Shown: positions 27,881-47,581, numbered from the stretch's first letter. The stretch is 64,000 bases of DNA from Patescibacteria group bacterium (GCA_049604715.1 JBMYTV010000004.1:22535-86534), one strand, 5' to 3'. The notes: a model not told the origin generated them from the letters alone. Numbers and translations: made by a program.

Positions 27881-27887
27881 TATTCAT

Positions 27888-28304
27888 ATGGCAAGTAAAA
27901 ATACCTACAATTTATACGGTATCGCATTGACTGCTTGTTTTATATTGGCAGCGATTATATTACCTATGTGCCAGACGTACATGATGGATCATGCTAATAT
28001 GGCGCATACAGAACAGGCACAATGCTGTGGTGCTGACGAGTCAAATAGCGAGCTGGTCGCAGCTCATCACATTGCTTACTTCAAGACAATGTATAATGGG
28101 TTAGCAAGTAAGGGCACATTCGCTTTACTTCTTGGATTGGCAGCTTTATTTTTCGTATCGGCATTCCTGGTCTGGTCGCGTAAAGATTTCTCTCATGTAT
28201 TTCAACGGTTAGAACACCATTCAAAACTACCAGAGATACCACTGTGGAATTTTCTACAGATGGCGTATGCTCAAGGGATAGTTCAGAGTAAGCACTTGGA
28301 TTAA
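27888..28304 (+). CDS. membrane protein, hypothetical
   Basis: 2-3 TM helices; CC pair; start taken at the internal ATG after the previous stop. Confidence 0.4.
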   Translation: MASKNTYNLYGIALTACFILAAIILPMCQTYMMDHANMAHTEQAQCCGADESNSELVAAHHIAYFKTMYNGLASKGTFALLLGLAALFFVSAFLVWSRKDFSHVFQRLEHHSKLPEIPLWNFLQMAYAQGIVQSKHLD

Positions 28305-28379
28305 CAATATACGTTCACGTTTTTTAGTTGTGTCAGTTTTTTTGCTGATACACATCTTTATTAATCTAACGTAACGTAT

Positions 28380-29153: not shown

Positions 29154-29162
29154 ACTTAAGAG

Positions 29163-29738
29163 ATGATGAAGAAATACATTTCACAAGTAGTAACTGCAAT
29201 GAAGCAAGTATTTAGTACGTGGCAGTACTGGTTAGTAAGTCTTGGAGTGGCAGCAATGATAGTTCTGATAACAATTTTGCTTTCACAATACCAATTCATT
29301 GCTACCATTCTTGATTCAGAGCTGTTTGATTCAAAAGTGAAATTCAAAGCAATACTCAGTTCTTTGGGATCTTTCCAAACTAATTTGACGCTAGAAGATC
29401 AAGTCTTTGCTGTGGCCATAGCATTACTTTCGGGAGTTACTATGGCAATTGTTGTGTATTACTTTAAGCATAGATTTTCCCTTCAAATGGCAACTGGTAC
29501 GAGCTTTTTGGGAGTCTTGGTTGGATTGTTTGGTGTGGGATGTTCTGCGTGCGGATCGGTAGTTGTTTCTACTATTTTTGGAATCGGAGCAGCAAGTGCT
29601 TTTTTAGGAGCATTGCCATTCAAAGGAACTGAGATAAGTATATTGAGCATACTGATATTACTTGGCTCAATATACATGATTGCAAAGAAAATAGTTTCAC
29701 CAGATGTGTGTGAAATAAAACCTTCTTCATCGTCTTGA
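29163..29738 (+). CDS. membrane protein with Cys-rich motif, hypothetical
   Basis: 4 TM helices; GVGCSACGS motif. Confidence 0.4.
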   Translation: MMKKYISQVVTAMKQVFSTWQYWLVSLGVAAMIVLITILLSQYQFIATILDSELFDSKVKFKAILSSLGSFQTNLTLEDQVFAVAIALLSGVTMAIVVYYFKHRFSLQMATGTSFLGVLVGLFGVGCSACGSVVVSTIFGIGAASAFLGALPFKGTEISILSILILLGSIYMIAKKIVSPDVCEIKPSSSS

Positions 29739-29759
29739 GACACTTTAAAGACGAATTAT

Positions 29760-30581
29760 ATGAAAAATAAGAAATACTTTATTGGAGGAATAGTAGTCCT
29801 TGTGCTTATCATTGGCGCTTTTATGTTAGGTAAAGGTGAGACCAATGAAGCGCAGGCACAGGGCAAGTTAGAAGTAGCTGAAACACATTATGACTTTGGT
29901 ACAATTGGTCTTGATAATGTAACCCATCCTTTTACTGTGAAGAATATTGGTGCAGGACCTCTAACCATTGAACGAGTATCAACATCATGTGGCTGCACTA
30001 CAGCCCAACTTAAGCAGGGTAGCAAAACCAGTGTTCAGTTTGGTATGGACCATGGAAATTTGCCAAAGGCCAACATGACCTTGCAGCCAGGCGAAGAAAC
30101 CGAAGTATTAGTGACATATAACCCACTAGCACATGGATTAAATAACGCAGCAGGACATTTTCGCAGAATTGTTTATATTCAGACCAGTAATCCTAAAGAA
30201 GAACATGAACTCATAGTTGAGATGACGGTTGATCCTGATAAAAAAACAGCACAGGAAGCTCAAATAGAATTTGATAAGCAGTCGTATGACTTTGGTCAAA
30301 TTCCAAAAGAGGGTGGTGTAGTAGAAACGACATTCACTGTATTTAATCGGGGTGGAGAAAGTCTGGCTATCAGTGATATCACCACTTCATGTGGGTGTAC
30401 TAGTGCGGAAATTGCATCAGAAAATATCCGGCCTAATGGTTCTACTAAACTAACTGTTCGGTTTGATCCTGATTTTCACGATGAACCACAAGGCAAGCTA
30501 GAGAGAATAGTCACGCTATTTACCAATGACCCAGAAAACCCTGAGGCTAATGTAGAAATATATGCTGAAATTATTGAATAA
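29760..30581 (+). CDS. DUF1573-like repeat protein (two CGC-containing beta domains), membrane-anchored
   Basis: Duplicated YDFG...STSCGCTTAQ / YDFGQ...TTSCGCTSAE modules. Confidence 0.55.
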   Translation: MKNKKYFIGGIVVLVLIIGAFMLGKGETNEAQAQGKLEVAETHYDFGTIGLDNVTHPFTVKNIGAGPLTIERVSTSCGCTTAQLKQGSKTSVQFGMDHGNLPKANMTLQPGEETEVLVTYNPLAHGLNNAAGHFRRIVYIQTSNPKEEHELIVEMTVDPDKKTAQEAQIEFDKQSYDFGQIPKEGGVVETTFTVFNRGGESLAISDITTSCGCTSAEIASENIRPNGSTKLTVRFDPDFHDEPQGKLERIVTLFTNDPENPEANVEIYAEIIE

Positions 30582-31785
30582 GCTCATAGTCTTTGTCGGT
30601 ATTGGCTTTTTGTTGGCGACCCCTGCTTTTGTTTCTGCTCAACAATCATTTTCTTCAGCTGAAGTTTATTACAACGAAGCATGTGGTGGGTGTAATGTCT
30701 ATTTGCAGGAAAAGTTAATCCCATATCTTGAAGAGCAGGGGTTAGTCGTAGAAATGCATGATTATGTAAACGACAAACAGGCTCGTAAAGACATGAATGC
30801 ATTTCAGGAACGTCTTGGAATTCCGTATGAGCTGCAAAGCCATATCATGACCTTTGTTGATAATGGAAAGTTGGTAATTGGTGGTCATGTGCCACTGGAA
30901 AGGGTAGAGGAGCTGTTTGCTGCAGGTGCATTACCTGACCAACTTGTAGTGTACCAAGATCAGATGCTTGAAATGGGGATCAACCCTGATACGGTGTCGT
31001 ACACGATTTGGCAACCTGATGTTGAAGTAAAAGAGTATGAATTAAATGAACCACTAACTACTTATTTGAGTGAGTGGGAAGTAGGGTCCCTGCAGCCAAG
31101 TAAATGGCAAGAAAAATCATTGTTACCGTTGGTACTGACGACCGGGTTGGTAGACGGATTGAATCCATGTGCATTTGCAGTACTGCTATTTTTTATAGCG
31201 TTCCTGTATTCAATCAGACGGTCGACCAGGCAAGTTTGGTTGATGGGCGCAACGTATATTGCTGGAATTTATCTGATTTATCTCAGTATTGGTCTTGGGT
31301 TATTTCAAGCAGTTACCATTTCCAGTCAACCTCACTTTATTGCTAAAGTGGCAGCGTGGTTAATTATTGGATTAGGTGGTTTGACGGTAACACAACATTT
31401 GTTCCCGCAGTTACCATTTAGATTTCGATTACCATCTTTTTCCAAAGTCACCATTAAAGAATGGCTAACAAAAGCTACCTTACCAGCCAGCTTTATTGCT
31501 GGTGTGATAGTGGGGTTGTGCACATTTCCGTGCTCAGGAGGGATTTATGTAGCAGTTGTGAGTATGTTGACTACGCAGAGTACGTTTGCGAAAGGATTAG
31601 GCTACTTAGCTGTGTACAATGTGATGTTTGTGGTACCACTTATTGCCATTTTGCTCGCGGTTGGGAATAAAAAGTCAGTTGAAAAGGTTGAAACATGGGA
31701 AAAGAAAAAAGCCGGGATGTTCAAATTAATCAGTGGTGTAGTTATGGTTTTGTTGGGACTTAGCATTTTGATTTGGTTTGTTTGA
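30562..31785 (+). CDS. thioredoxin-like domain fused to a CcdA/DsbD-type transmembrane thiol-disulfide transporter
   Basis: N-terminal CGGC; TM core with LNPCAFAVLLFF and TFPCSGG motifs. Confidence 0.7.
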   Translation: MLKLLNKLIVFVGIGFLLATPAFVSAQQSFSSAEVYYNEACGGCNVYLQEKLIPYLEEQGLVVEMHDYVNDKQARKDMNAFQERLGIPYELQSHIMTFVDNGKLVIGGHVPLERVEELFAAGALPDQLVVYQDQMLEMGINPDTVSYTIWQPDVEVKEYELNEPLTTYLSEWEVGSLQPSKWQEKSLLPLVLTTGLVDGLNPCAFAVLLFFIAFLYSIRRSTRQVWLMGATYIAGIYLIYLSIGLGLFQAVTISSQPHFIAKVAAWLIIGLGGLTVTQHLFPQLPFRFRLPSFSKVTIKEWLTKATLPASFIAGVIVGLCTFPCSGGIYVAVVSMLTTQSTFAKGLGYLAVYNVMFVVPLIAILLAVGNKKSVEKVETWEKKKAGMFKLISGVVMVLLGLSILIWFV

Positions 31786-32236
31786 TGATAACTATATGAC
31801 AGTTGTATTTATTTCACTAACAGTCATACTGGCAATTTACTTCATCATAGCCTTTTCTCCACTTAAGGTGTGTGCGATTTGTTCTGCGGTGAGCATGACA
31901 TGGCTTGGCTTGTTGTTAACGTATATGCTTGGCATGCATGAAGAGATAGTTTGGTTGGGAGTACTCATGGGGGGAAGTGTAGTTGGATTGATGTACAAGC
32001 TTGATAGTTACTGGAAAGAGAAAAAGTATTCAGGTACATGGCTGCTCAAACTAACAATTATTGTGTTTGGTTTTTTGACCGTCTATGTAGTCGTGAACAC
32101 ACTGTGGACAGATTTTTTCTGGCTTGTGCCATCCATGGTTGTTGTGAGCACGATCGGGGTCATGCTTCTCAGAAGTAATAAGGAAGACAATGTATCTTCA
32201 AAATTACAAAGTAAACTTGATCATTGTTGTGATTAA
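31778..32236 (+). CDS. membrane protein, hypothetical
   Basis: 4 TM helices; CAICS motif. Confidence 0.35.
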   Translation: MFDDNYMTVVFISLTVILAIYFIIAFSPLKVCAICSAVSMTWLGLLLTYMLGMHEEIVWLGVLMGGSVVGLMYKLDSYWKEKKYSGTWLLKLTIIVFGFLTVYVVVNTLWTDFFWLVPSMVVVSTIGVMLLRSNKEDNVSSKLQSKLDHCCD

Positions 32237-32255
32237 GAATGTAATCTACTGAACT

Positions 32256-32528
32256 ATGGTAACAAAAGACCAAACAAATAAAGAAAAAGCACTTGATAGT
32301 ATTGGATGCGCCAAAGCCAAAGTAAGTAAGATGTTGGTTATGATTGAACACAATGATGATGTGATGACGATAATCCATGAGTCAGAAGCTACCAGACGGG
32401 CATTAAAACGTGCTGACCGCATGATCATCAAACGACATCTGGAGAAAGTTGCGTATGAACAACGTGGTCATACGGGCCAAGCCACTGCACGGGAGTTATT
32501 ATCGTTACTCAAATTTTGGCTAGATTGA
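32256..32528 (+). CDS. CsoR/RcnR-family (DUF156) metal-sensing transcriptional repressor-like
   Basis: 90-aa helical protein with conserved Cys (IGCAK) and His (IIHES) positions in the CsoR-like pattern; heads the copper operon. Confidence 0.45.
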   Translation: MVTKDQTNKEKALDSIGCAKAKVSKMLVMIEHNDDVMTIIHESEATRRALKRADRMIIKRHLEKVAYEQRGHTGQATARELLSLLKFWLD

Positions 32529-32552
32529 TTACTAACCTTAAATAGCTATGTT

Positions 32553-33134
32553 ATGAATTTCAAATTACTAATTATTTTGCTGCTCATCATAGGCGGACTC
32601 GGTGTGCTCTGGTCAGTTAGTAGTTTCTTTAGTAGTAAAGGAAATGATAAGTTGGTTCAAAATCAGGAGAACTTTGAGCGAGCAATAAATGCTGAACTCC
32701 CTGATAAGTGTCAGACACCTGTAGGGTATACTAATGATGAATGGCTGGGACATATGTCGCATCATCCAGATAGGTATCAAGAATGTTTGCAGGAAGTTGA
32801 TCTGGATGCTATAGCACGTAAAGATATAGGTTCACAAGATCTGGCATTAATGCTTGAACAAAAAGACTTTGTGTTAATTGATACTCATATTCCAGAGCAA
32901 AAACACATTCCCGGAACTGACGTGTTTATTTCTTTTAACGAAATTACAGACCAACTTTCGCAGTTGCCTCAGGATAAGAATGCAAAGATCGTATTATATT
33001 GCCGTAGCGGCAATATGAGTGAGCGCGCTTCTCAGGATTTGATTGAGCTGGGTTACACCAATGTATACAATTTAGTTGGTGGAACAAATGCTTGGCAACA
33101 GGCTGGTTACTTGGTTGAGGATGTTTCACTATAA
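32553..33134 (+). CDS. rhodanese-domain sulfurtransferase, membrane-anchored
   Basis: Active-site loop YCRSGNMS; NLVGGTNAWQQAGY. Confidence 0.75.
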   Translation: MNFKLLIILLLIIGGLGVLWSVSSFFSSKGNDKLVQNQENFERAINAELPDKCQTPVGYTNDEWLGHMSHHPDRYQECLQEVDLDAIARKDIGSQDLALMLEQKDFVLIDTHIPEQKHIPGTDVFISFNEITDQLSQLPQDKNAKIVLYCRSGNMSERASQDLIELGYTNVYNLVGGTNAWQQAGYLVEDVSL

Positions 33135-33139
33135 TAGGC

Positions 33140-33592
33140 ATGAAAAAAGAACTTAGAAACAAAGCTTTATTGTGGGGAGTTATAGCAATACTTGGTATGA
33201 CATTGTTTTATATAGTGATCATGTTACTAACCATGTCACCCAGTGAAGCTTGGTTAAATTTTATTAGCCTCTGGCACTATATCGTAGGAATTATTGTTGG
33301 TTTTGGAATACAGGTTGGATTGTGGGTATATATAAAGAACTGTGGTAAGAGTAGCGCTCATGGAGCAATGCCAGGAGCAAGTGGCACCATGTCTGGCACG
33401 GCCATGGTTGCGTGTTGTGCGCATCATTTAACAGAAGTATTGCCAGTATTTGGGTTAACTGGAGCGACTATATTTCTTACGCAGTATCAAAAACCCTTTC
33501 TCATACTCGGTGTATCAATTAATATTCTTGGTATTGCATATATGCTTCAAATCCTACAGAAGCACCAAAAAATAACTATTAACAGTGAATAA
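33140..33592 (+). CDS. membrane protein with CC-HH motif, hypothetical
   Basis: 4 TM helices; MVACCAHH. Confidence 0.35.
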   Translation: MKKELRNKALLWGVIAILGMTLFYIVIMLLTMSPSEAWLNFISLWHYIVGIIVGFGIQVGLWVYIKNCGKSSAHGAMPGASGTMSGTAMVACCAHHLTEVLPVFGLTGATIFLTQYQKPFLILGVSINILGIAYMLQILQKHQKITINSE

Positions 33593-33983
33593 TTGTATGT
33601 CCAACTACGGATATTCCAAACGATTACAAGTTTCTTTTGATGAAGCGGTTGAACGAGCAGTAACTGCACTCAAAGAGCAAGGGTTTGGTATACTGACAGA
33701 TATAGACGTAAAGGAGACATTGAAGAAAAAATTAGACGTGGATTTTAAACAGTATCGCATTTTAGGAGCATGCAATCCACCTCAAGCGTATAAGGCATTG
33801 CAGTTAGAGGAAGAGCTTGGCTTGTTGTTGCCGTGTAATGTGATTGTGTATGAAAAAGATAGTGATGTAATAGTGTCTGCTTTAAAGCCGAGCGTTGCGT
33901 TCACAATTGTAGAAAATACACAACTTGAGTCAGTAGCTTCAGAGGTTGAACAAATATTAAAACAAGTGATTGATAACGTATAA
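33585..33983 (+). CDS. DUF302-family protein
   Basis: [25 protein letters not shown]...ILGACNP pattern. Confidence 0.5.
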
Positions 33984-36222
33984 AAATATGGCAAAGAAAA
34001 TACAACTAAATATTGAAGGAATGCATTGTGCGTCGTGTGTTGCACATATTGAAGGAGACCTTAAGAAAAAAGAGGGTGTTAAAAGCGCACGAGTCAATTT
34101 TGCAACTGAAACAGGGCAAGTTGAATTTGATGAATCACAGGTTAGCCAAGAAGACATTGTCCAGACAATAAAAAAGACTGGTTATAGCGCAACTCCTTTG
34201 GAAGAACCGTCACATGCTCATCATACGGAACATGGCCATGACAATTCTCATGACCATTCAGCTAGTTCTGGGCAGGATCATTCTGCTCACGCAAGTGCTG
34301 AAAGTGACCGTCAGGTAAAGGACAGGTTGAAGAAAGTAGTTATCGCAGGGGTATCGACTATAGGCATTCTTATTTTGATGGCGGTGCATATCGAGAACGG
34401 GATGTTTATCATGCTGTTGCTTTCATTAGGCGCTCTCTGGGCTGGACAAGAGTTTTTCAAAGTTGGATTTCCGGCACTACTGCGGGGTAGGCCAGATATG
34501 AATACATTGGTTGCACTTGGTGTAACAGCTGCCTTTTTATACTCAACCTACGCAACATTGTTCAATCCAGAACTTGGCGAATACTTTATGGACGTTGGTA
34601 TCATTACTACGTTTATTTTACTTGGACGCTACTTGGAAGCGCGGGCAAAAGGAAAGGCTTCAGAAGCAATTAAAAAGTTATTACAGTTATCTGCCAAAGT
34701 TGCACATAAAGTCGTGCGAGAAAATACAACACAAGATATTCCAGTTGATCAGGTTCAAAAAGGTGATGTGTTGCTCGTCAAGCCAGGAGAGAAAATTCCA
34801 GTTGATGGTGAAATAGTAAAAGGTACCGCAACGGTTGACGAATCAATGGTCACTGGCGAAAGTATTCCAGTTGATAAAAAGGAGAAAGATCAGGTGATAG
34901 GCGCTACTATCAATGGAAATCAGACATTTACTATGAAAGCTCGGAAAGTTGGTTCTGAAACAGTGCTCGCTCATATAGTGAAGCTAGTGCAAGAAGCTCA
35001 AATGTCCAGGGCACCAATACAAAAGCTGGTTGATAAAGTTTCAAAGTATTTTGTCTGGGGAGTGATCATCATAGCTATTGCTACGCTTGCAGGATGGATT
35101 AGTTTTTCAGGCGAAGCAGCACGCGCTTTGATTTACACTGTTGCTGTCCTGATTATTGCCTGCCCCTGCGCTTTAGGTCTGGCAACTCCAATATCTATTG
35201 TAGTTGGTACTGGTCGCGGTGCGTCTTTGGGTATTTTGATTAAAAATGCTGAGGCTCTTGAGAAAATGCATAAAATAACAGTGGTTGCTTTTGATAAAAC
35301 TGGAACAATTACTAAAGGACATCCAGAAGTGCAAGAATGGGTACAGATAAGCAAAGATGCTGATGCGTTACTTCCGGCAGCGCTATCTCTCGAGTCTCAG
35401 TCAGAACACCCACTGGCCAAAAGTATTGTGGACTGGTTTGCTAAGGAGAAGAATGCACTAAAACCATACAACCTTTCTGAGGTTAAGGCAGTCACAGGTA
35501 AAGGTATTGAGGGTAAAGATGAGAATAAAATCTATCGAGTTGGTAGCATAAAGTTTTTATTAGAAAGCAAAGTTACTGTTACTAAAGAGAACAAAAACAA
35601 CATTGAGACCTATGCACAAAAAGGACATACCATCATAGGCTTTGCCAAAGATGGGGAATTGGTAGGTTTCTTTGCTGTTCAGGATGGGCTCAAGGAATCT
35701 TCTGTTGAAGCTATTACTATTCTCAAAAACAGAGGCATCAAAACAGTTATGCTAACAGGAGATAATGAGGCAGTGGCAAAAGAAATAGCTCGTCAGGTGG
35801 GTATTGATGAGGTTAGGGCTGAAGTCATGCCAGAGGATAAAGTGAGCGTTATCAAAGAACTGCAAGACAAGGGTGAATTTGTAGCAATGGTCGGTGATGG
35901 TATTAACGATTCACCGGCACTTGCACAAGCGAATGTCGGTATTGCTATGGGTACAGGAACTGATGTTGCAGTAGAGACAGGAGACGTTGTGTTGGTTAAG
36001 GGTGATCTTATGAAAGCAGCTGAAGCAATCGGTCTATCTGAGGCTACACTTAAAAACATTAAGCAAAATCTTTTTTGGGCTTTTATATACAATACAGTTG
36101 GTATCCCGATTGCGGCTTTGGGATTCTTAAGCCCAGCGTTCAGTGCTGCTGCTATGGCTTTTAGCAGTATTTCAGTTGTATTAAATGCTTTGCGGTTAAA
36201 GAAGGTTAAGATGACAAAATAA
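33970..36222 (+). CDS. copA: copper-translocating P1B-type ATPase
   Basis: [11 protein letters not shown], His-rich linker, [30 protein letters not shown]. Confidence 0.9.
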
Positions 36223-36226
36223 TTTC

Positions 36227-37699
36227 ATGAAATTCAGAGCTATTATTAGTATTGTCGTATTTGCATTGATTGCAGGAGGTGGTGTGTGGTTGTATAAAAA
36301 TCAACAAAATACGGAAGGTGTTATTCGGCAAACAAATAGCGATATCAGTAACATCAAACAAGGTTTGCGCAAAGAATTTGCAGATGCTTATGAGAAAGAC
36401 AGCGTACCAAGTGGAAAGGTGGTAGCTTTTGACATGATTGCTGAGCCTAGTACTGTTGAATTATTTACTCAAGATGATGTGGGACTGGAGTTAGATGATT
36501 ATACAACCAGTGTGTGGACCTATAATGGTACGGTGCCAGGTCCTGAGATTAGGATAAAGCTTGGTGATACATTACGACTCAATTTTACTAATAATTTACC
36601 ACAAGAAACGACAGTGCATTTTCATGGCGTGCGAGTGCCAAATGCTATGGATGGAGTGCCAGGAATAACGCAAGAACCTATACAACCGGGCGATAGTTTT
36701 GTATATGAATTTACTCCAAAAGACGCAGGTACCTTCTGGTTTCATCCACATGTGAAGACATCAGAGCAGATGGAACGAGGACTATATGGAACACTGATTG
36801 TCGAGGACGAGATAGACGATCAATACACTCAAGATGTCACATGGGTAATAGACGATTGGAGAATTGGACAAGATTTGCAAATAGATCCAAACTTTAATAC
36901 CATGCATGATTTAATGCATGATGGCAGGTGGGGAAATGTTGTTACAGTTAATGGGAAGCTAGACGAGAAGCTATATGTTAAACCCGGTGAGAGAATCCGT
37001 CTTCGCCTGGTAAACACATCGAATGGACGAGTTTATGTGCCTGTTTTTGCTGGGCTAAAACCTATGGTGATAGCAGTTGATGGAATGTACGTCAAAGAAC
37101 CATTCTTGCTAGATAGATTTGAGCTAGCGCCAGGCAACCGACTTGATATTGATATTACAATTCCGGATAATGAAAGGACGTTCATTGTTTCTGACTATTT
37201 TGGACGTAATGTAAATCCATTAGGTGAGATTATTTCAGAAGGTGCAGTAGTAGCTACACCAGATTTTGAGTATCCGCATAATGATAAAGTTCCTGAATGG
37301 AATGATGTTGCTATTCTCCCTATAAATAAAGAGTATCGATTAAACGCTCGTCGCAAAAGCGGTCATGGCGTGATGGGTGGTATTGAATGGACCATCAATG
37401 ATAAAGCGTTTCCCGAATATGATCCATTTACTTTTGCCTATGATGAAATAAATATCTTTCAGTTTACTAACGAGTCTGCACGCTTGCACCCAATGCATCT
37501 ACATGGACAATTTTTCAAAGTTATTTCCAAAAATGGCCAGATAGCTAATGAAGAATATTTTCGTGATACAGTCTTAGTAGGATCAAAAGAAACAGTAGTT
37601 TTGGCTACCGTACCTCTCGATAAGGGTTCATGGGTTAACCACTGCCATACTCTTGAACACGCTGAAGCTGGGATGCTAACTGTTGTAGAAGTAGAATAA
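36227..37699 (+). CDS. multicopper oxidase
   Basis: HFHGVRVP, WFHPHV, HPMHLHG, HCHTLEHAEAGM copper-site motifs; N-terminal TM/signal. Confidence 0.85.
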   Translation: MKFRAIISIVVFALIAGGGVWLYKNQQNTEGVIRQTNSDISNIKQGLRKEFADAYEKDSVPSGKVVAFDMIAEPSTVELFTQDDVGLELDDYTTSVWTYNGTVPGPEIRIKLGDTLRLNFTNNLPQETTVHFHGVRVPNAMDGVPGITQEPIQPGDSFVYEFTPKDAGTFWFHPHVKTSEQMERGLYGTLIVEDEIDDQYTQDVTWVIDDWRIGQDLQIDPNFNTMHDLMHDGRWGNVVTVNGKLDEKLYVKPGERIRLRLVNTSNGRVYVPVFAGLKPMVIAVDGMYVKEPFLLDRFELAPGNRLDIDITIPDNERTFIVSDYFGRNVNPLGEIISEGAVVATPDFEYPHNDKVPEWNDVAILPINKEYRLNARRKSGHGVMGGIEWTINDKAFPEYDPFTFAYDEINIFQFTNESARLHPMHLHGQFFKVISKNGQIANEEYFRDTVLVGSKETVVLATVPLDKGSWVNHCHTLEHAEAGMLTVVEVE

Positions 37700-39059: not shown

Positions 39060-40550
39060 TTAAAACGTCATGTCTCGTATACCAGCCATTATGGGTCTGC
39101 AGTTTTTAGTCATAAGACGATCCCAGTTAATTCTGGCTCTAGTTATCCCAAGCGCATAATTAGCTGCCATAACAAACGCATCTACTAAATCATCATATCG
39201 CTCTGAACCAAAGAAGAGTATTTGATTAATCAACTCTTCAGCACCTTCTTCGGGGAATACAATAACACCTTCTTTTATTGCAACACTTATTTCTGCTAAG
39301 CGAGATCGTTTGTCCATGCCTTGTGGTGAGACTCCTTTGGCTGGATAACCTTCTCTGCCCAGGTCATCAACCAGCCAAGCCTGGGCAGCCACATCTTCAA
39401 TCAATAGTTTGGATAAGTTTTCACCACCGAGTTGTTCAGACAATGCTTTTGCTTGGGTGCGAATATCAGAAATATTCAATCGCTTGTTGATGGGATTTGG
39501 TAGCACATAGATCCTAAAGTTTTCGTCATAGCCATAGACCTTTACAGAAACCATGGCTGTTTTGTCTGCTGAATCCTTTAATGATATAGCAGGATCAATA
39601 GCTGTGACTACTTGTCTAAATGGTCGTTTGTCATCTGTATCAGACGGCAGACTCTTGAAATAGTGTATCCATTCAGGCAACACCACTCTGCTGGCATCTG
39701 AAATGAAGTTGAGCATGTATTCACGTTGGAACGTAACTTCATTACCGGTTTTAAGTTTCAGTGACTCAATAGATTTTTGATCAGTAAACTTACCTGACCA
39801 CAACACTTTGTTTTCGTTATTGACTAGTGGATATTCTTTAAAGATCCCATTCATTTTGCGTGATTCAATACCTCGTCTGAGTCTCATGATAACAGAGTCT
39901 TCGTGGAGCAAGTTGCCAATGATTACAATATTGGTATCCTGATCTCCAGCAGGAAATACATCACCCAAAAGCCAGTTATATAACTTGTCCCGTGAGTCTC
40001 TGTTTTTCATGGAATTCAGATCTTCGATATCATCTGCAATGATAAGATCAGGTCTGTGTTCATAATGTCGTATACCACGAATACTTTGATCTGATGAAGC
40101 GACAGTAATTCGAGCATTGTATTGAGGAATGACAATAGAATACGAACCCCATTCTTCATTGGACTCTTCAAATGGTCCAAGGTCGCTTTTGAGTAGTAGA
40201 TTATGCTCAAGTTCCTGCTTTAGATTCATCATCATTTGTTTTGCTTTTTGTTGGGTTTGAGCAAGTATTACTATGAACTTCTTTTGTAGTTTTCCTAAGA
40301 TTGCCCAGATGGGCAGAGAAGTGGAGATAATAGTAGACTTGCCTGATCCTCTGAATGCGACAATAACTGCCAGAGGGATCTTGCCATCTTCGGTAATACT
40401 AAAGATTTCTTTTTGGAATGAAGCGGTTGGGTATTTCACGTAATGAGCAAAGTAGATGTTAAAAAACCAATAATGACTTTCATGTGCTAGAGATCTACGA
40501 ACTATTGGATCTTTCATAACTCGCTCAGCTACTTGTTTAGGATTTGTCAT
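39060..40550 (-). CDS. phage terminase large subunit
   Basis: Walker A AFRGSGKST, Walker B-like LIIADDIED, C-terminal nuclease-like half; 496 aa. Confidence 0.75.
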   Translation of the reverse strand: MTNPKQVAERVMKDPIVRRSLAHESHYWFFNIYFAHYVKYPTASFQKEIFSITEDGKIPLAVIVAFRGSGKSTIISTSLPIWAILGKLQKKFIVILAQTQQKAKQMMMNLKQELEHNLLLKSDLGPFEESNEEWGSYSIVIPQYNARITVASSDQSIRGIRHYEHRPDLIIADDIEDLNSMKNRDSRDKLYNWLLGDVFPAGDQDTNIVIIGNLLHEDSVIMRLRRGIESRKMNGIFKEYPLVNNENKVLWSGKFTDQKSIESLKLKTGNEVTFQREYMLNFISDASRVVLPEWIHYFKSLPSDTDDKRPFRQVVTAIDPAISLKDSADKTAMVSVKVYGYDENFRIYVLPNPINKRLNISDIRTQAKALSEQLGGENLSKLLIEDVAAQAWLVDDLGREGYPAKGVSPQGMDKRSRLAEISVAIKEGVIVFPEEGAEELINQILFFGSERYDDLVDAFVMAANYALGITRARINWDRLMTKNCRPIMAGIRDMTF

Positions 40551-40962
40551 ATGTTTCTTTGTTAGTGGTTAAAGATGCCAGTTCTAAGGCTTTTTCAACG
40601 ATTGCCTGTTGTTCAGGACTCAGTTCTTTTATTTCTCGTTTGAGTTTGGCTGTAACTTCTACTTTAGTGGCATACATAGGGTGGTGATGCTTGAGCCAGA
40701 AGATAATAGCGGTCATGTTTCTATCTTTGATAGCATCAAGTAACTTAGCCTCTGCCATATCATTGACTAGATCAGCACCATGTTTAATTGCTTCACCCGT
40801 GGCTTTAGCAAATTCAGGATCTTCTTTACGCCAGCGATAGTAGGTAGCACGACTGACATTTTCACGACCACAAGCGTATTGAACAATTGGTGTTTTACGT
40901 AAGCGTTCAAGTAATGCTTGTTTGTTTTTCTCTTTTCGTTCGTTAATAGTTTGATTACTCAT
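40537..40962 (-). CDS. phage terminase small subunit-like HTH protein
   Basis: HTH ...CGRENVSRATYYRWRKEDPEF...; overlaps terL by 14 nt. Confidence 0.5.
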   Translation of the reverse strand: MSNQTINERKEKNKQALLERLRKTPIVQYACGRENVSRATYYRWRKEDPEFAKATGEAIKHGADLVNDMAEAKLLDAIKDRNMTAIIFWLKHHHPMYATKVEVTAKLKREIKELSPEQQAIVEKALELASLTTNKETYDKS

Positions 40963-42277
40963 ATTTCTTACGTTTAAGACCAGTTAATTTCTCCCATCTA
41001 TTCATGATTACTTCAGCATAGACGGGTGATTTTTCCATGAGATAGCACCGGCGTTTCATCTTGGTAGCTGCAATCAAAGTAGATCCACTACCACCAAAGG
41101 GTTCTACAATTAGGTCGTCACGTTTGGTTAAGACCTTTATGTAGGGGATTAATATCTCCACTGGCTTTGTGCCAAAGATGATTCCTTGACCAGATGACTG
41201 TTCGTCACTGGCTTTGTAATCAATAAAATCAGTTGGTGCGTATTTTTTACCCTTCTTGTATCCTTCCCAATGTGGTTTGCCTGAAATAGCAAACAAAGCC
41301 GTCTCATATTCTTCTTGTAGTAATGTTTCTTCAGATTCTTGATTCAGTGTTCGTTCTCCGCTAGTGCCAACCATGGCAATGTCATGTTTTGAGAAGAATT
41401 TGTACTTAGCTGCAAATCCTTGTGTTCTATTAGGTAGGCGCCACACAATCATATTTTTAACCTTCCAATGCTTTTCCATTTCGTTCCAGATCGTACGTAT
41501 GTTCTTCCAGTTCTCATACACGATGATTGAGAAGTCGTTCTTTGCCACTTGAGTAATGTTGTTCATCCATAGCTCCGTAAAATTATCTGGTAGTACATCT
41601 GTCTCTAAATACCTACGATCACGTTTGTATCCAAACCCTTCATTCTTTTTGTTTTTCTTTTTACCTTTGAGGTAGTCGAGAATATATGGAGGGTCGGTGA
41701 AGCACATATCAGCTTGCTTTCCATTCATAAGCTTCAGGACATCTGCTTCAACAGTAGAGTCACCACACATGAGCTTTGAGTCACCAAGCTGATACACATC
41801 ACCTTTTTTTACTTTGACTTCTGTGATGTTCAGTTTTTCCAACTCTTTTTTTAAGTCAAATTCTTCTGGATTGTCGTCGATATCAAATACATTATCCAGT
41901 TCCTCGCTGGAGAACCCGACATCTGAAAGAAACGACTCATCAAACTTAGCTAACAGATCAAAGTCAAATTCACCAGTATTTTTGTTGAGTCGGATATTCA
42001 GCTCTTTTTCTTTTTCAAGATCTGGAATGTTGACGTAGACAACTGGAATTGAATCAACACCCAAGTCCTTTGCAATTTTGAGCCTAAAGTGACCTCCGAT
42101 AACTATGTTCATTCTGTCTGGAGCAGAGTTACATATTATTGGGTCAACTAGCCCAAAGCGTTTGATGCTTTCAGTTAGTTGAGCAATGGCATCCTCACTC
42201 CATTTACGTGGATTATATGTTGCGACCTTGAGGTCTTTGGCAGGGAGGTATACAACCTCCATTTTTGCGTTTTGCAT
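40955..42277 (-). CDS. ParB-like nuclease domain fused to a beta-class DNA (N6-adenine/N4-cytosine) methyltransferase
   Basis: N-terminal ParB/Srx (DPIICN...IVIGGHFRLKIAKDLG); motif IV FTDPPY precedes motif I EPFGGSGST. Confidence 0.8.
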   Translation of the reverse strand: MQNAKMEVVYLPAKDLKVATYNPRKWSEDAIAQLTESIKRFGLVDPIICNSAPDRMNIVIGGHFRLKIAKDLGVDSIPVVYVNIPDLEKEKELNIRLNKNTGEFDFDLLAKFDESFLSDVGFSSEELDNVFDIDDNPEEFDLKKELEKLNITEVKVKKGDVYQLGDSKLMCGDSTVEADVLKLMNGKQADMCFTDPPYILDYLKGKKKNKKNEGFGYKRDRRYLETDVLPDNFTELWMNNITQVAKNDFSIIVYENWKNIRTIWNEMEKHWKVKNMIVWRLPNRTQGFAAKYKFFSKHDIAMVGTSGERTLNQESEETLLQEEYETALFAISGKPHWEGYKKGKKYAPTDFIDYKASDEQSSGQGIIFGTKPVEILIPYIKVLTKRDDLIVEPFGGSGSTLIAATKMKRRCYLMEKSPVYAEVIMNRWEKLTGLKRKKYE

Positions 42278-42607
42278 AAGCGTATATGGTTAGTAATTAA
42301 TAAACAAACAAAAAAGGGCCTAAAACAAACCCACTTAACGCAAATAATGCGAAATAGATTTATTTTAGGCCCCGGTCAACGAACAGGAACGAGATGTTCC
42401 CACGCCTTCATACGCCGCAGAGTCTATACGATAACCAACCGCCAGGCTACAAAGCCTTGTATGGCGCCGGTTGATTAAAGATTAATTGTAATGTCCTAGT
42501 ATTAGGGTAGCATATTGCTCAATAACGTTCAAGTCTTGACTGTTGGGGATAAAAAGAGTATGCTAGCAATAACAACAAATGACAAGAAATGATAACAAGT
42601 AACAAGA

Positions 42608-42619
42608 CCTGTTAACAGG
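42608..42619. promoter_or_regulatory. perfect 12-bp palindrome CCTGTTAACAGG, candidate operator of the LexA-like repressor
   Basis: Seen directly, 12 nt upstream of the repressor ATG; CTGT..ACAG half-sites. Confidence 0.4.
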
Positions 42620-42631
42620 CTATTTGCTCAT

Positions 42632-43282
42632 ATGCATATACTCCAACAAAGAATTCTAAATTTAGCTCAACAAGTAGACCTATCAAAACTAGGCTTACGA
42701 AAGCTAGGTAATCTACTCCATGAGAAATGGCCACAGAAGGTGAAGCACCATTTGCTGCAGTTGGAAGAGAACGGTTATGTGAAATTGGATACCAACAAGA
42801 GCCGGGTTATAAAAGTTTTAAAAAAGGGAAAACCAGCTCAGGGCTCAAAATTATTCAGGATCCCCATCTTGGGTTCTGCAAATGCTGGACCTGCTACTAT
42901 ATATGCGGATCAAGATGTTCAGGGTTATTTGCCAATATCTCAAACGGTTTTAGGCAGAAATAGCACCGATGGTTTGTTTGCCATCAGAGTAGTGGGCGAT
43001 TCTTTAAATAGAGCCACGGATGTTAAAGGTGGTCCAGTTAATAATGGTGATTATGTTGTTGTAGATAGTAAAGTAACAAAACCAAGTAATGGTGATTATG
43101 TGCTATCAGTGATTGACCAAGTGGCAAACCTGAAGCGATACTATGAAGATCCTAAGCATCGTGAGATACGACTAGTGTCGGAATCTAGTTTAGACATACC
43201 TCCTATTGTGTTACATGAGAAGGATTTTGATTCATCAGACTATTTAGTTAATGGAAAAATAATTAAAGTTGTAAAGAGTTAG
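42632..43282 (+). CDS. LexA/CI-like repressor (winged-helix N-terminus plus S24 peptidase domain)
   Basis: LexA-like DNA-binding (LLQLEENGYVKL), Ala-Gly cleavage site (SANAGPA), GDSLN serine and LKRY lysine dyad. Confidence 0.75.
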   Translation: MHILQQRILNLAQQVDLSKLGLRKLGNLLHEKWPQKVKHHLLQLEENGYVKLDTNKSRVIKVLKKGKPAQGSKLFRIPILGSANAGPATIYADQDVQGYLPISQTVLGRNSTDGLFAIRVVGDSLNRATDVKGGPVNNGDYVVVDSKVTKPSNGDYVLSVIDQVANLKRYYEDPKHREIRLVSESSLDIPPIVLHEKDFDSSDYLVNGKIIKVVKS

Positions 43283-43285
43283 AGT

Positions 43286-43990
43286 ATGAATATATTTAAC
43301 GAGTATACTTTGAAAGCTAGGATTGTTCCCGCGTGTATTACTTTAATACCTATTTTGGTTTTATATAATTTTTTTCTTCAGTTATATATTAATGATTTTG
43401 TAAATTTCGTAAATAATTTTTTTATACTAGCCAGTAACGTCTCTCTGGCTATAATCATGATTTTTGTTTTTGCTCAATTTGGTAGATCAGTTGGCAAGTT
43501 CTTGTTTGAAAAAATACACTTTAAGGATCAGTTACAATTCCCAACAACTGATTTTCTTTTGTATCAAAATGATAAATTGAGTAAAGAATATAAAGAAAAA
43601 ATCAGACAACAAATTGAGAATGATTTTCAAATAAAGCTTCTGGATCAAAAAGAAGAGAATGCTGATATTGATTCAGCAAGAAAGAAAATAGTAGAAGCAG
43701 TTGGCTTGGTTAGAAATAAAGTAAAGGACGGGAGGTTATTATTACAGCATAATATAGAGTATGGTTTTTATAGAAATGTTGTTGGTGGATCGGTAATTGC
43801 CACTGCTATCTCGATATTGAATATGCTTCTTTTTTTAATTTATTTGCCAAATGAAATTGCGCTTACCTTATCAGTGATTTTGTTTGTAGTTTATTTAATG
43901 CCAATAATATTTAGTAAAAAAATTTTAAATACGCATGGACATAAATACGCAGAACTACTTTTTCAAGAATATCTTTCTAACACAAATTAA
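43286..43990 (+). CDS. membrane protein, hypothetical
   Basis: 234 aa, 3-4 TM helices, Lys-rich central segment. Confidence 0.4.
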   Translation: MNIFNEYTLKARIVPACITLIPILVLYNFFLQLYINDFVNFVNNFFILASNVSLAIIMIFVFAQFGRSVGKFLFEKIHFKDQLQFPTTDFLLYQNDKLSKEYKEKIRQQIENDFQIKLLDQKEENADIDSARKKIVEAVGLVRNKVKDGRLLLQHNIEYGFYRNVVGGSVIATAISILNMLLFLIYLPNEIALTLSVILFVVYLMPIIFSKKILNTHGHKYAELLFQEYLSNTN

Positions 43991-44001
43991 TATTAATTAA
44001 T

Positions 44002-44922
44002 ATGACAAGGATACACTTTTTAAATGTTGGGGCCGGAGACTGTGCAATTATACACTTTCCTCCAAGAGAAATAACTGATGCTAGTGGTCGTTTAATAAAA
44101 ACTAAAAATGAAAGGATCATGATGATTGATATGAATCATCATGATAGCCACGATGAATACGAAGACGTTATTAGCTACTATAAGTTACATTTCGGCACAA
44201 AACCTATATTTAGGTTTATTTGCACGCACCCACATCACGATCATATATGTGGATTACATAAAATTTTTGCAGATCAGGATATAGAAATTTTAAATTTTTG
44301 GGACGTCATTCATGGCTTTGCACCCGAAAGTTTTGACGGTCATACTTGGCATAAAGCTGATTGGGACACATATCAACATTTGAGGAGTGACAGTACCCAA
44401 ACTCCGAAAACGATAAATGTTCTTAGAGAGACTGCTCCTTTTGCTTTTTGGGATGATAGTGAGGATAGGATCAGTGTATTGTCGCCAACTTTAGATATGA
44501 TTAAAGAGTTGCATGGACCTAAGCAGGATGGAAGTAAGCGTGAAGCTCACGAGGTGGATATTGATGATTTATCTTATGCTCTATTGCTTAAGATTGGTCC
44601 TATTAAGGTGGTTTTTGCCGGAGACGGACGTGAACAGGTTTGGAATGATATAGTTGAGAATTGCGGCTCTTTAATACAAAATACTCATATATTAAAGGCT
44701 GGTCATCATGGACATGAGTCAGGTTTTCATGAGGAAGCTATTAAGTTAATGGATCCAGAATTTATTATTTTTTCGAATAGTGCTAATGAAGATGGTAAAA
44801 ACGGGGCTAGTTCATTGTATGAAACAGCTGTGCCAGGAGTTGATGTATATAAGACGTTCGAACTAGGTAATATCATTGCTAACTGTGATTACGACGGATC
44901 AATAGAGTTTGAATATAGTTAA
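44002..44922 (+). CDS. metallo-beta-lactamase-fold hydrolase (ComEC-like MBL domain), standalone
   Basis: HFLNVGAGDCAII, THPHHDHICG (HxHxDH), KAGHHGHESG. Confidence 0.65.
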   Translation: MTRIHFLNVGAGDCAIIHFPPREITDASGRLIKTKNERIMMIDMNHHDSHDEYEDVISYYKLHFGTKPIFRFICTHPHHDHICGLHKIFADQDIEILNFWDVIHGFAPESFDGHTWHKADWDTYQHLRSDSTQTPKTINVLRETAPFAFWDDSEDRISVLSPTLDMIKELHGPKQDGSKREAHEVDIDDLSYALLLKIGPIKVVFAGDGREQVWNDIVENCGSLIQNTHILKAGHHGHESGFHEEAIKLMDPEFIIFSNSANEDGKNGASSLYETAVPGVDVYKTFELGNIIANCDYDGSIEFEYS

Positions 44923-44942
44923 GACATATACTTAAAAAAATT

Positions 44943-45977
44943 TTGACCAGTATGGCAATTTTTATACCAGATAAAAACATAAAATCTAATGATAGCTTTG
45001 GTCAAGCTGTTAATAAAGCGCATTTAGACTATATAAATTCAGAGCTCAAAAACAGGAAACTGAAAGGTTTCACAGTTGCTGGTGTTGAAATAATTTTGAG
45101 CGGTAAGCATAAAGTTTACTTTGATGGGGAAGTACAAATGTCAATTGAGTTCAAAGATAAAAAACTCAAACCGTCGGATAAGGGGAAAAACATTAGCTTA
45201 AATTTACATGATATTAAAGATATTAAATGGCAGGACCCTAAGTTAAAAAAGAATGCTGCTAGAATACTCATCTGGCGCTTTAATAACGACTGGTGGATTT
45301 GGGATGCTGATTTTAAGCAAAACAAAAAGCTTGAGGAAAGTTTTAAAATTTCTAGAAGTTTTGCTGTGCGAGGTGGAGGTTACATGCCTCTGAGTTTACG
45401 ACGAAAAGAAAGACCTGATTTCATCAGTGGGTGGAAAGATGGATTGGATAAAGAGCTCTCAGCAATGTGGAGGCGACATATAACGGTTTCGCAGCGCTAT
45501 CGAGGGGTAATAGTATATGATGGTAACTATTTCGATCTATTTTCTCATGCCCAAGAACTTTATGTATTAGGTTATTATTATTCGTCGATAGTGATATGTC
45601 GTACTGCTGCAGAGCAGGCGTTAATTCAGATATTACGAAAATCTGGAAAGGGATTTGAGATATACAAAAGAAATAAAGGAAAGAAAAAGTTAAAAAGTAT
45701 TGAGCAGTTAACCACGGCTTGTCGTAGTTATGCCTTATTTCATAAAAAATATCCAATTAATAAAACGGCTGCACGTAAAGCGAATGAGATATCTGTAATA
45801 GCAGGAAATTTAGTACATCCTAAGACCGGTTTAAAAGAATTGGATGTGTATAAAGAGGACGCATTAAAGTGCATGGATAACTTGCAGTATATAATAAAGA
45901 ACCATTTAAATTTTATCAAAGATACTGGAGTTGTATCTGGTTATAAAATAACAGGTTCTTCTAAGCGATTAAAATAG
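44943..45977 (+). CDS. hypothetical protein
   Basis: 344 aa, Lys-rich, no recognised motif; tightly spaced within the operon. Confidence 0.4.
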   Translation: MTSMAIFIPDKNIKSNDSFGQAVNKAHLDYINSELKNRKLKGFTVAGVEIILSGKHKVYFDGEVQMSIEFKDKKLKPSDKGKNISLNLHDIKDIKWQDPKLKKNAARILIWRFNNDWWIWDADFKQNKKLEESFKISRSFAVRGGGYMPLSLRRKERPDFISGWKDGLDKELSAMWRRHITVSQRYRGVIVYDGNYFDLFSHAQELYVLGYYYSSIVICRTAAEQALIQILRKSGKGFEIYKRNKGKKKLKSIEQLTTACRSYALFHKKYPINKTAARKANEISVIAGNLVHPKTGLKELDVYKEDALKCMDNLQYIIKNHLNFIKDTGVVSGYKITGSSKRLK

Positions 45978-45996
45978 GTATTTTTTAATTAATAAC

Positions 45997-47097
45997 ATGA
46001 AACCTCATCTCAAAGAACATCAATATTACTCCGACCTATACGACCGTCATACAGTCGAAAATTGTCGCGGGATAGAATCAAGATATAACGAATCTATCAA
46101 GAACAGAGTTGGCAAGAAAATGACAGAGAAAGACAGTGCTAACCTAACAGCTCATAGGCTGATAATGTACTTTGAAACTGGAGAGCGATACATCAAGAAA
46201 CAAAAAACTATAGATGAATGGATAGCTAGAGATACAGCCAGAGATGATTTATATAATTCAGCTCAAGCCTCAGAGGAAATACGCTGTTTAACGTGCAGTA
46301 CATTAATGACAGTTACTTTAAAAGATTTACAGATTTCAATACTTGAAGATTCTAAAGATAGAATACTATTCATGTATGATTGTCCTAACAAATGCCTACC
46401 CAGACGGGCTTTTTTTGATAATGGTGAAGAATGGAAACCAAAAGTACATTTATGCCCTAAATGTAATACTGAACTAGAATCTTCTAATGAAAGAAAGGGA
46501 GATAAAGTAATAACTACCGAGACTTGTAATCAATGCGATTATTCAAATGTAGATGAATTAGATTTGTCTGCTAAAAAAGAAAAACCCAAAATAGATAAAG
46601 ATTTTGAAAAAGATAGAGCTAGGTTTTGTTTAAGTGAAGAAGAAGGGCAGAAGTATATTCAAGCAAAAACAAATATGGAGCAAATGAAGCACTTGGTTGA
46701 TGAAATGAAAGAACGAGAAAAGAATAAGGATACTTATGATAAAGTCGCCAAGCTCAAAAAACTCACCTTAGTTCAATTAGAAAACACTCTGACCCCAGAG
46801 CTTGAAAAGAATGGCTATATAAAATTAGAATTAGCCACTCCAGAAATGGATAAAGATGTAATAGTAGGTTTTACGGTCAGGGAAAGCAAAGATGATCGAG
46901 AAGAATATGATAGCAAAAATCAACTTAAGAAGTTGGTCCAGAATTTACTCAAAGATACCAACTGGCGATTGATGAGTGATGGGATTCATTATAGATTAGG
47001 TATCCTCCAGGGGAGACTCAGGGCTTACGAGAGGGAAGGAGATTTGAAGAAACTTGTTTTATCACAACTGCGACAGAAGAGTAAAGAAGTTGTATAA
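45997..47097 (+). CDS. hypothetical protein with two Cys4 zinc-ribbon-like motifs and a central coiled coil
   Basis: CLTCST...CPNKC and CPKCNT...CNQCD; KE-rich helical middle. Confidence 0.4.
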   Translation: MKPHLKEHQYYSDLYDRHTVENCRGIESRYNESIKNRVGKKMTEKDSANLTAHRLIMYFETGERYIKKQKTIDEWIARDTARDDLYNSAQASEEIRCLTCSTLMTVTLKDLQISILEDSKDRILFMYDCPNKCLPRRAFFDNGEEWKPKVHLCPKCNTELESSNERKGDKVITTETCNQCDYSNVDELDLSAKKEKPKIDKDFEKDRARFCLSEEEGQKYIQAKTNMEQMKHLVDEMKEREKNKDTYDKVAKLKKLTLVQLENTLTPELEKNGYIKLELATPEMDKDVIVGFTVRESKDDREEYDSKNQLKKLVQNLLKDTNWRLMSDGIHYRLGILQGRLRAYEREGDLKKLVLSQLRQKSKEVV

Positions 47098-47104
47098 TAT
47101 ATTC

Positions 47105-47581
47105 ATGAAGTCAAGAGAAATATTAAAACTTATTCTTGCCATAGGTATTTCACAGCTCGCAGGAATTATAGGATCGCTCTTTACCGCATCATCAATTCCT
47201 AACTGGTATGCAACTATTGAGAGGCCAGCACTGAATCCGCCGAGTTGGGTATTCGGTCCTGTCTGGACAACGCTTTATGCCCTCATGGGAATTGCTGCTT
47301 TTTTAGTCTGGAAGCAAGGCTGGGAGAAAAAGAAAGTGAAAATAGCTCTTGGAATGTTTGGTGTCCAGCTATTTTTAAACTCTATATGGTCTATTATCTT
47401 TTTCGGGTTAAATAATCCTGGTTGGGCGTTGGTTGATATCGTACTCCTGTGGTTTGCAATTGTCTGGACTATGGTTGTTTTCTATAAGATCTCAAAACCA
47501 GCTATGTATCTCCTTGTTCCATACATCCTCTGGGTATCATTTGCAACCTACTTAAACTATGCTATTTGGGCTCTCAATTAA
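47105..47581 (+). CDS. tspO: TspO/MBR-family tryptophan-rich membrane protein
   Basis: WYATIERPALNPPSWVFGPVWTTLYALMGIAAFLVW; 5 TM helices. Confidence 0.7.
   Translation: MKSREILKLILAIGISQLAGIIGSLFTASSIPNWYATIERPALNPPSWVFGPVWTTLYALMGIAAFLVWKQGWEKKKVKIALGMFGVQLFLNSIWSIIFFGLNNPGWALVDIVLLWFAIVWTMVVFYKISKPAMYLLVPYILWVSFATYLNYAIWALN

Follow-up and report, generated by a model that had tools for sequence, protein, structure and literature searches.

Do four tightly spaced, co-directional genes on a mobile region form one defence system, or several? The question is raised by a locus in a stretch of 64,000 nucleotides (nt; the whole stretch is called the window below) from a metagenome-assembled genome of the Patescibacteria (Candidate Phyla Radiation, CPR). 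Much of bacterial diversity falls within the Patescibacteria, in which CRISPR is mostly missing and immunity has been little charted. Four genes of the window, here named g1 to g4 and recorded as hypothetical proteins in the deposited contig of 86.8 kb, directly follow a LexA-like repressor gene, and the first-pass annotation had proposed them as a single new anti-phage or addiction system. We found that only g1 and g2 are true partners among the four. With moderate confidence we read the interval as the right-hand cargo arm of an element of about 21 kb that has integrated into the genome, an arm in which a slot between the LexA-like gene and g4 holds two unrelated modules (g1+g2 and g3). The interval contains the following features:

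42632-43282, + strand: LexA/CI-like S24 repressor (216 aa), predicted conserved left frame of the cargo slot, directly 5' of g1
43286-43990, + strand: g1 (234 aa), membrane protein with four transmembrane helices and a soluble helical insert of about 100 aa, partner of the metallo-β-lactamase (MBL) protein
44002-44922, + strand: g2 (306 aa), ComEC-type MBL-fold metallo-hydrolase, putative nuclease
44952-45977, + strand: g3, single-gene module whose new N-terminal alpha/beta domain is followed by a long helix and then by a C-terminal domain resembling HEPN/DUF4145
45997-47097, + strand: g4 (366 aa), helical hairpin, two zinc ribbons, coiled coil and ferredoxin-like C-terminal domain

The open reading frames (ORFs) were all present as first described, as were the MBL motifs HFLNVGAGD, THPHHDH and KAGHHGHESG, which lie in g2. 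The spacers are 3 nt (LexA-like gene to g1), 11 nt (g1 to g2), 20 nt (g2 to g3) and 19 nt (g3 to g4). For g3 a TTG at 44943 gives 344 aa and an ATG at 44952 gives 341 aa and a spacer of 29 nt; the ATG is the start of the deposited protein and of all its homologues. The GC content of g1-g4 is 0.28-0.37, as compared to 0.396 for the whole window.

The partnership of the four genes was determined in a comparison set of about 115 related loci (numbered L001 onwards). Neither g1 nor g2 was found within 10 kb of g3 in any of 11 distinct g3 loci, and neither g3 nor g4 occurred near the MBL gene in any of about 80 MBL loci. The proposal of one four-gene system therefore fails for g3 and g4 relative to g1 and g2; the four genes appear to belong to three modules of the defence-island type, each mobile on its own. 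Other parts of the first-pass annotation were supported: the region is mobile-element cargo, with genes for a serine recombinase, TerL, TerS and a ParB-methylase nearby. All four genes have homologues inside restriction-modification, toxin-antitoxin or other defence islands.

Exchange of the cargo was observed in the sister contig L115. This contig is 84% identical to the window at nucleotide level over 41960-43281 (the N-terminus of the methylase gene, the intergenic region and the LexA-like gene) and over 46027-47045 (g4), and it retains the ParB-methylase N-terminus (94% aa identity), the LexA-like protein (84%) and g4 (86%). In place of g1-g3, positions 1336-3674 of L115 hold genes for a 173-aa protein with an N-terminal transmembrane helix, a SMODS nucleotidyltransferase and a SEC-C protein, a cassette that resembles a candidate for defence by CBASS-like or other signalling. 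The nucleotide homology stops just short of the g4 stop codon, as it would if this were the end of the element. Thus the LexA-like gene and g4 probably form the conserved frame of a swappable cargo slot, and the arm would run from one to the other. From the sequence, the interval appears as a mosaic of this frame, a PDC-M48-like membrane/MBL pair and a single HEPN-like gene.

The element to which this slot is assigned was recognized by its backbone genes, identified with Pfam and PHROGs matches or by their domains:

25745-27031, - strand: large serine recombinase (Resolvase, Recombinase and Zn_ribbon_recom domains), probable left end of the element
39060-40550, - strand: TerL
40537-40962, - strand: TerS
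40955-42277, - strand: ParB-N6/N4 methylase

The TerL/TerS/ParB-methylase trio was found in the same order, together with the recombinase, in the CPR loci L001, L010, L040, L108, L117, L118 and L119, and L015 and L107 carry TerS and the ParB-methylase only. The recombinases of other Patescibacteria loci are 51-67% identical and adjoin or lie near the trio; those of L001 and L040 directly adjoin TerL and are 59-62% identical to the window copy. This recurrence indicates that an element of about 21 kb, extending from roughly 25.7 to 47.1 kb, is integrated in the window, with a predicted two or more cargo positions. Capsid or tail genes were not seen in the element backbone, and a literature search for CPR elements of this type turned up nothing specific. 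In having conserved frame genes and exchangeable defence cassettes it resembles the defence hotspots of integrative elements and phage satellites, such as E. coli defence islands and pipolins (PMC10121019, PMC11551731), and it differs from them in the Patescibacteria host, the backbone and the frame of a LexA-like gene and g4.

More than 1067 homologues of g4 were found, all of them from CPR where the source is named. Seven invariant cysteines and one Cys/His position give two zinc ribbons, which are followed by long helices, and the AlphaFold2 model has a predicted local distance difference test (pLDDT) score of 87. Typically g4 is the last, tightly coupled gene after a set of variable genes, often in the same element family. 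It ends runs of variable defence genes in L001 (NotI restriction-modification and other genes), L014 (type III restriction-modification and a KAP NTPase), L107 (a 1035-aa ATPase), L108 (a helix-turn-helix (HTH) and ImmA/IrrE pair), L109 (an MmeI-like enzyme, Gabija-like OLD/UvrD, DUF2779 and a trypsin-like protease) and L115.

This placement would also fit a different function, in which g4, and perhaps the LexA-like gene, serves the life cycle of the element (for example as a recombination directionality factor, a replication function or an anti-repressor on induction) and the slot merely accumulates cargo. Proximity of g4 to the recombinase/TerL/TerS/ParB-methylase backbone in the window, L001, L015, L107, L108 and L115 speaks for such a function, and so do minimal versions in which g4 comes right after regulators (HTH and ImmA/IrrE in L108, small ORFs in L015) and the point at which the L115 homology ends. 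However, in L014, L109 and L110 g4 closes defence operons that lack a backbone gene within 10 kb, and it resembles no known directionality factor or replication protein. We regard a life-cycle function as unlikely but as a reasonable alternative, one that is compatible with the cargo slot and does not exclude a mosaic of cargo.

The left frame gene matches Pfam Peptidase_S24 (1.7e-13) and reaches 77.5 bits with the NCBIfam LexA equivalog (TIGR00498), under its cut-off of 110.95. It is predicted to be a LexA/CI-like S24 repressor, and identity with the cellular LexA is not established. The residues of S24 self-cleavage are in place, with an Ala-Gly site (NAGP), Ser124 (GDS) and Lys168 conserved among relatives. 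At the same position of the element, the L040 copy is 46% identical. The general idea of the first-pass annotation, that defence cargo on a mobile element is placed under an SOS-type repressor, found support: a LexA-like ORF recurs beside the MBL pair, within three genes of the MBL gene, in about half of the close, CPR-type loci. Two simple assignments of the LexA-like gene were set aside. It is not purely part of the MBL module, as L115 and L117 carry it with other cargo, and it is not purely element backbone, as MBL pairs outside the element have it too and several elements lack it. Beside MBL pairs the LexA-like ORF is sometimes fused to or adjoining a methylase. For instance, a single 531-aa protein in L016 (3264-4859, - strand) has LexA_DNA_bind, S24 and N6_N4_Mtase domains and adjoins the MBL pair. 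An ORF beside g3 in L012 (8347-9822, - strand) matches both the LexA-like protein and the ParB-methylase of the window, and a 684-aa ORF in L032 groups with the LexA-like hidden Markov model (HMM) family, with the remaining ~450 residues outside the match.

Upstream of the repressor gene one feature may have a regulatory role:

42565-42620, no strand assigned: candidate operator region, just 5' of the LexA-like start

It consists of three 10-nt-phased repeats (42565-42604) and a perfect 12-bp palindrome, CCTGTTAACAGG, at 42608-42619, and a promoter-like site (42536-42564) lies upstream of both. The palindrome has one exact copy in the window, so that no regulon can be deduced from it. The intergenic region between the ParB-methylase and LexA-like genes (42278-42631) also holds GC-rich imperfect hairpins at 42316-42372 and 42432-42477. 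It gave no credible Rfam match and no conservation in comparison to the equivalent regions of L001, L015 and L040.

For g3 we found 83 homologues, all from CPR/Patescibacteria and 50-68% identical. The gene sits at the end or in the interior of various operons for restriction-modification (types I, IIG and III) or defence, tightly coupled to its neighbours. It lies between HsdS and HsdR in L005, after HsdM, AbiEii, HsdR and a YgjP-like peptidase in L010, after a PLD-helicase, RhuM and an Eco57I-like methylase in L006, and after type III Mod/Res in L008 and L013; at other loci it stands beside DUF4238, DUF4209 or AAA_13 proteins. An MBL domain hidden in the variable upstream neighbours of g3 was looked for and rejected, these neighbours being restriction-modification subunits or proteins without a Pfam match. 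No relative of g3 was found among the viral contigs of IMG/VR, and sequence-profile searches of the PDB with g3 and g4 gave noise only.

The AlphaFold2 model of g3 (pLDDT 83) shows an N-terminal alpha/beta domain (residues ~1-130), a long helix and a helical C-terminal domain (~185-325). All top PDB matches of the C-terminal domain in Foldseek were HEPN proteins (TM0613, HepT and Csm6), with a probability of up to 1.0 and a template-modelling score to the target of 0.66, but with an E-value of only about 0.06. DUF4145 is the commonest weak Pfam match in the family, and the DUF4145 and HEPN matches are sub-threshold. Of the two partners that had been described as lacking a recognisable family, g4 remains so, and for g3 the description is overturned in part by the HEPN-like C-terminal domain.

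A profile search of 1.84 billion representatives returned only 45 proteins related to g3, and these are of two kinds. The first are proteins of ~250 aa that combine the g3 N-domain with a different, classical-HEPN-like C-terminus, as read from the sequence and from one weak Pfam match; the second are proteins of ~190-240 aa that correspond to the C-domain alone. The N-domain accordingly seems to be a dedicated partner domain of HEPN. In the representative library, entries P0326-P0344 have the N-domain in ~250-aa proteins, and one 460-aa protein adds a canonical RNQLCH HEPN motif. In the alignment of C-domains the invariant H289 of g3 lines up with the histidine of the RNxYxH motif of its relatives. 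Two patterns were seen: six sequences have a glycine in helix 2 together with the motif arginine (CG...RNxxxH), and five have an arginine in helix 2 and have lost the motif arginine (CR...GNxxxH). The g3 family follows the latter, with CR at the invariant R217 in helix 2 and AGNLVH at H289. This exchange suggests that the catalytic arginine may have been relocated to helix 2 and that the site may still be active. With known HEPN proteins (DUF4145, AbiD/F-like, HepT and Csm6), g3 has in common a predicted HEPN-like helical fold, weak DUF4145/HEPN matches and the embedding in restriction-modification loci, and it differs in the new N-domain, in the missing Rx4-6H arginine, apparently supplied from helix 2, and in a full-length form restricted to Patescibacteria.

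HEPN domains are classic toxins, and the top fold matches of g3 include HepT of the MntA-HepT pair. The modules might therefore be toxin-antitoxin-like addiction cassettes that stabilise the element, with the MBL or HEPN protein as a toxin checked by its partner or by a domain; their position on an integrative element and HigBA, MqsA and HicAB neighbours in some loci would agree with that. However, g3 lacks a conserved small neighbour that could act as antitoxin, its neighbours vary, and its main association is with restriction-modification operons. We hold an addiction function to be improbable; its boundary with abortive-infection defence is also blurry.

The cargo upstream of g3 is a two-gene pair. 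According to its hydropathy profile, g1 has four hydrophobic helices (residues ~13-35, 43-63, 167-187 and 191-211). In an alignment of g2 with 24 homologues the metal-binding HxHxDH (H76, H78, D80 and H81), D188 and H235/H236 were invariant. The Pfam Lactamase_B match of g2 is sub-threshold (15.8 vs 22.7), and the best solved relatives in a profile search of the PDB are the MBL domains of ComEC (E 1.5e-6), which supports the ComEC-type assignment of the first-pass annotation. Matches to MBL proteins of defence systems were obtained in PADLOC and NCBIfam. In PADLOC, whose output lists no curated cut-off, g2 matched two PDC-M48B models at 1.8e-16 and 4.2e-15, over 99-230 residues and only part of the model, and more weakly LmuA (6e-7), RTasMBL, which is associated with DRT (3.5e-6), and Avs1a. 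The NCBIfam matches (6A-MBL at 8e-6, ComEC and Avs1a) were all far below the cut-offs.

The MBL loci were fetched with the MBL profile, and adjacency was counted on the 35 loci with both flanks present. In 23 of these the MBL gene was flanked by a protein of 180-300 aa with at least three transmembrane helices, as compared to 13 of 569 background ORFs (Fisher p 6e-24); the partner was upstream in six cases and downstream in 17. L016 has a g2 homologue (57%) directly followed by a g1 homologue (46%), and L040 has the same element backbone followed by the LexA-like gene, an MBL gene (41%) and g1 (39%). The pair g1+g2 is thus conserved, in both gene orders, across many lineages.

By BLAST the membrane partners form three separate families, two of which are related by profile comparison: the g1 family (n=28) and the second family (n=11) aligned over full length with an hhalign probability of 97.7% and an E-value of 1.4e-12. 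The second family matches PDC-M48A (1e-3 to 4e-3) and Csx27 weakly, and the third family appears unrelated. By these comparisons g1 would be a remote relative of PDC-M48A/Csx27-like membrane partners. A 205-aa MBL membrane partner in L019 (10933-11550) matches the PADLOC model of Csx27 near full length (E 2.4e-5). Csx27 is an accessory membrane protein of type VI-B CRISPR (10.1101/092577).

Among known systems, PDC-M48, with a small membrane protein (A) and an MBL-fold protein (B), is the closest in arrangement. Its adjacent membrane protein and MBL gene are found here as well, g2 and distant homologues match PDC-M48B models at 1e-13 to 1e-19, and some of the partners to which g1 is tied by profile comparison weakly match PDC-M48A. 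Different are the partial nature of the PDC-M48B matches and a LexA-like gene that often accompanies the CPR version. We accordingly classify g1+g2 as a predicted divergent form of the PDC-M48 candidate system. The MBL proteins of Lamassu (LmuA), DRT, Avs1 and 6A, the last being among the known jumbo-phage defences (10.1101/2025.09.30.679545), belong to the same MBL-fold branch, with weak to moderate HMM matches but with scores far below the curated cut-offs. Scans with domain libraries found no SMC-like LmuB/C, reverse transcriptase, STAND NTPase or 6A ATPase in g1, g3, g4 or the neighbours.

The likeness to ComEC/Rec2 is of another kind. Both have a ComEC-type MBL with HxHxDH and HHG motifs and both couple a nuclease to a membrane component, but g1 and g2 have neither a Competence nor an OB domain, the membrane component here is a separate protein with four transmembrane helices from another family, g2 scores 14.6 bits with TIGR00361 (cut-off 190), and the genes are mobile and island-borne. 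If the pair had a housekeeping or scavenging function, as a split ComEC-like device for DNA uptake or a nuclease serving the nucleotide-scavenging lifestyle of CPR, and not immunity, this resemblance would be expected. Type IV pilus and competence genes are present in CPR genomes, and the window itself has pilus genes farther downstream. However, no competence domain (PF03772) was found in g1, and the pair is patchy across phyla, occurs on plasmids and mobile elements beside restriction-modification and toxin-antitoxin genes, and has a low GC content here. The MBL gene is also combined with at least three families of membrane proteins and, on plasmids, stands beside SEC-C and protease genes, a pattern typical of conflict systems. 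We consider a housekeeping or scavenging function quite improbable.

The neighbourhoods of the MBL pairs contain restriction-modification and toxin-antitoxin genes, and on plasmids related MBL genes are arranged in tandem, with genes for SEC-C, protease or MPN proteins adjoining or close by. On plasmid pRUNSL03 of Runella slithyformis (L111, 33700-43062 of the record) three tandem MBL genes each have a different neighbour, these being a SEC-C protein, hypothetical proteins of 236 and 136 aa, and a serine protease of ~1360 aa. The array suggests a modular, MBL-centred conflict system. A Burkholderia plasmid has a similar arrangement, with an MPN protein nearby.

Under the reading of the interval as a framed slot with two modules, a defence role is suggested by the association of the modules with defence genes and by their family resemblance to known effectors. 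In this scheme g1 would anchor or sense at the membrane and control g2, the MBL nuclease, which may degrade invading DNA, or host DNA in an abortive response. The N-domain of g3 is probably a sensing domain, and with the HEPN domain it would act as an RNase-type abortive-infection or back-up effector. The zinc-ribbon protein g4 looks nucleic-acid-binding and would belong to the frame and not to the MBL gene. Expression would probably start from the promoter of the LexA-like gene, with derepression after self-cleavage of the repressor. The substrates and the regulation in this scheme, like the defence function, are proposals.

A bolder version can be put forward tentatively, and as a whole we find it unlikely to hold in every part: an undescribed family of small phage-satellite-like integrative elements in Patescibacteria, all with the recombinase, TerL, TerS and ParB-methylase genes and with an induction arm that serves as an exchangeable slot for immunity genes under SOS control. 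A self-cleaving LexA-like repressor and the CPR-wide zinc-ribbon protein g4 would bound this slot, in which g1+g2 is a membrane-coupled ComEC-like nuclease that destroys incoming DNA and g3 is a HEPN RNase whose arginine has moved to another helix. Taken singly, the ingredients are of known kinds: MBL defence effectors paired with a membrane protein, HEPN proteins lodged among restriction-modification genes, and defence hotspots carried by integrative elements. Unusual are the CPR host, the terminase-bearing element with a serine recombinase, the frame of a LexA-like gene and g4, the arginine swap, and a g4 family without known function.

Several observations weigh against the framed-slot reading or parts of it. 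LexA-like genes are absent near the distant MBL clade, and only about half of the close MBL loci have one. The canonical Rx4-6H motif of HEPN is not found in g3, which has AGNLVH with the histidine kept and the arginine absent, and g3 could be catalytically inactive. In the PADLOC scan g1 itself had no match to a PDC-M48A model, and profile-profile scores between membrane proteins, as used to link g1 to the second family, may be inflated by composition. PDC-M48 is a PADLOC candidate only, and a literature search found no paper on it or validation of it. For g4, Foldseek searches against the PDB and BFVD returned only generic ferredoxin-like and zinc-ribbon pieces and no informative fold match. 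The ends of the element are placed by inference and unmapped, and the related loci were gathered by pattern-seeded searches, which are not an unbiased census. Almost all genes of the window lie on the + strand with short spacers, so that co-directionality and tight spacing are weak evidence for an operon, and co-transcription of g1-g4, in a genome with nearly all genes co-directional, is likewise inferred.

The same caution applies to a LexA-controlled four-component anti-phage or addiction system, which we consider very improbable: tight spacing, a shared strand, the lack of a + strand terminator-like site between 42261 and 47753 and the defence-island neighbours of all four genes speak for it, but it is largely refuted by the missing synteny and by the cassette swap between the LexA-like gene and g4 in L115, the family sizes are very unequal, from 83 for g3 through at least 171 to at least 1067 for g4, and g3 and g4 lie within 10 kb of each other in only two other loci, in differing orders and with other genes between them. 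For CPR genomes the lesson is that tight co-directional spacing is insufficient to infer a multi-gene system. The framed slot on a small terminase-bearing integrative element gives a testable picture of the trade in defence genes among CPR. It offers three separately clonable candidates: the pair of membrane protein and MBL, the HEPN architecture with its apparently relocated arginine, and the g4 family of more than 1000 members.

The remaining observations concern other parts of the element and its borders. The interval between the recombinase and TerL holds a block of copper- and disulfide-handling cargo (27230-37699, + strand), with genes for DsbA-like, DUF1573, DsbD-like, rhodanese and DUF302 proteins, a copper P-type ATPase and a multicopper oxidase. 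As the recombinase abuts TerL in L001 and L040, this block looks like a second cargo slot; at the same position L117 has two proteins of ~1100 aa. Beyond the multicopper oxidase the + strand block continues with a full-length LOOT RNA (RF03000, 37810-37931, + strand; 85.8 bits vs a gathering score of 46.4), which lies inside the element, and then with an SNase gene. At the left border the recombinase gene and an ABC1-kinase gene (24370-25752) run towards each other and share 8 nt at their 3' ends (25745-25752), which may mark integration into or beside the kinase gene. At the right border a TspO/MBR gene (47054-47581) follows g4. Its likeliest start is the ATG at 47105, 7 nt past the g4 stop codon, in preference to an overlapping TTG at 47054, and the similarity to L115 is already over before the TspO start.

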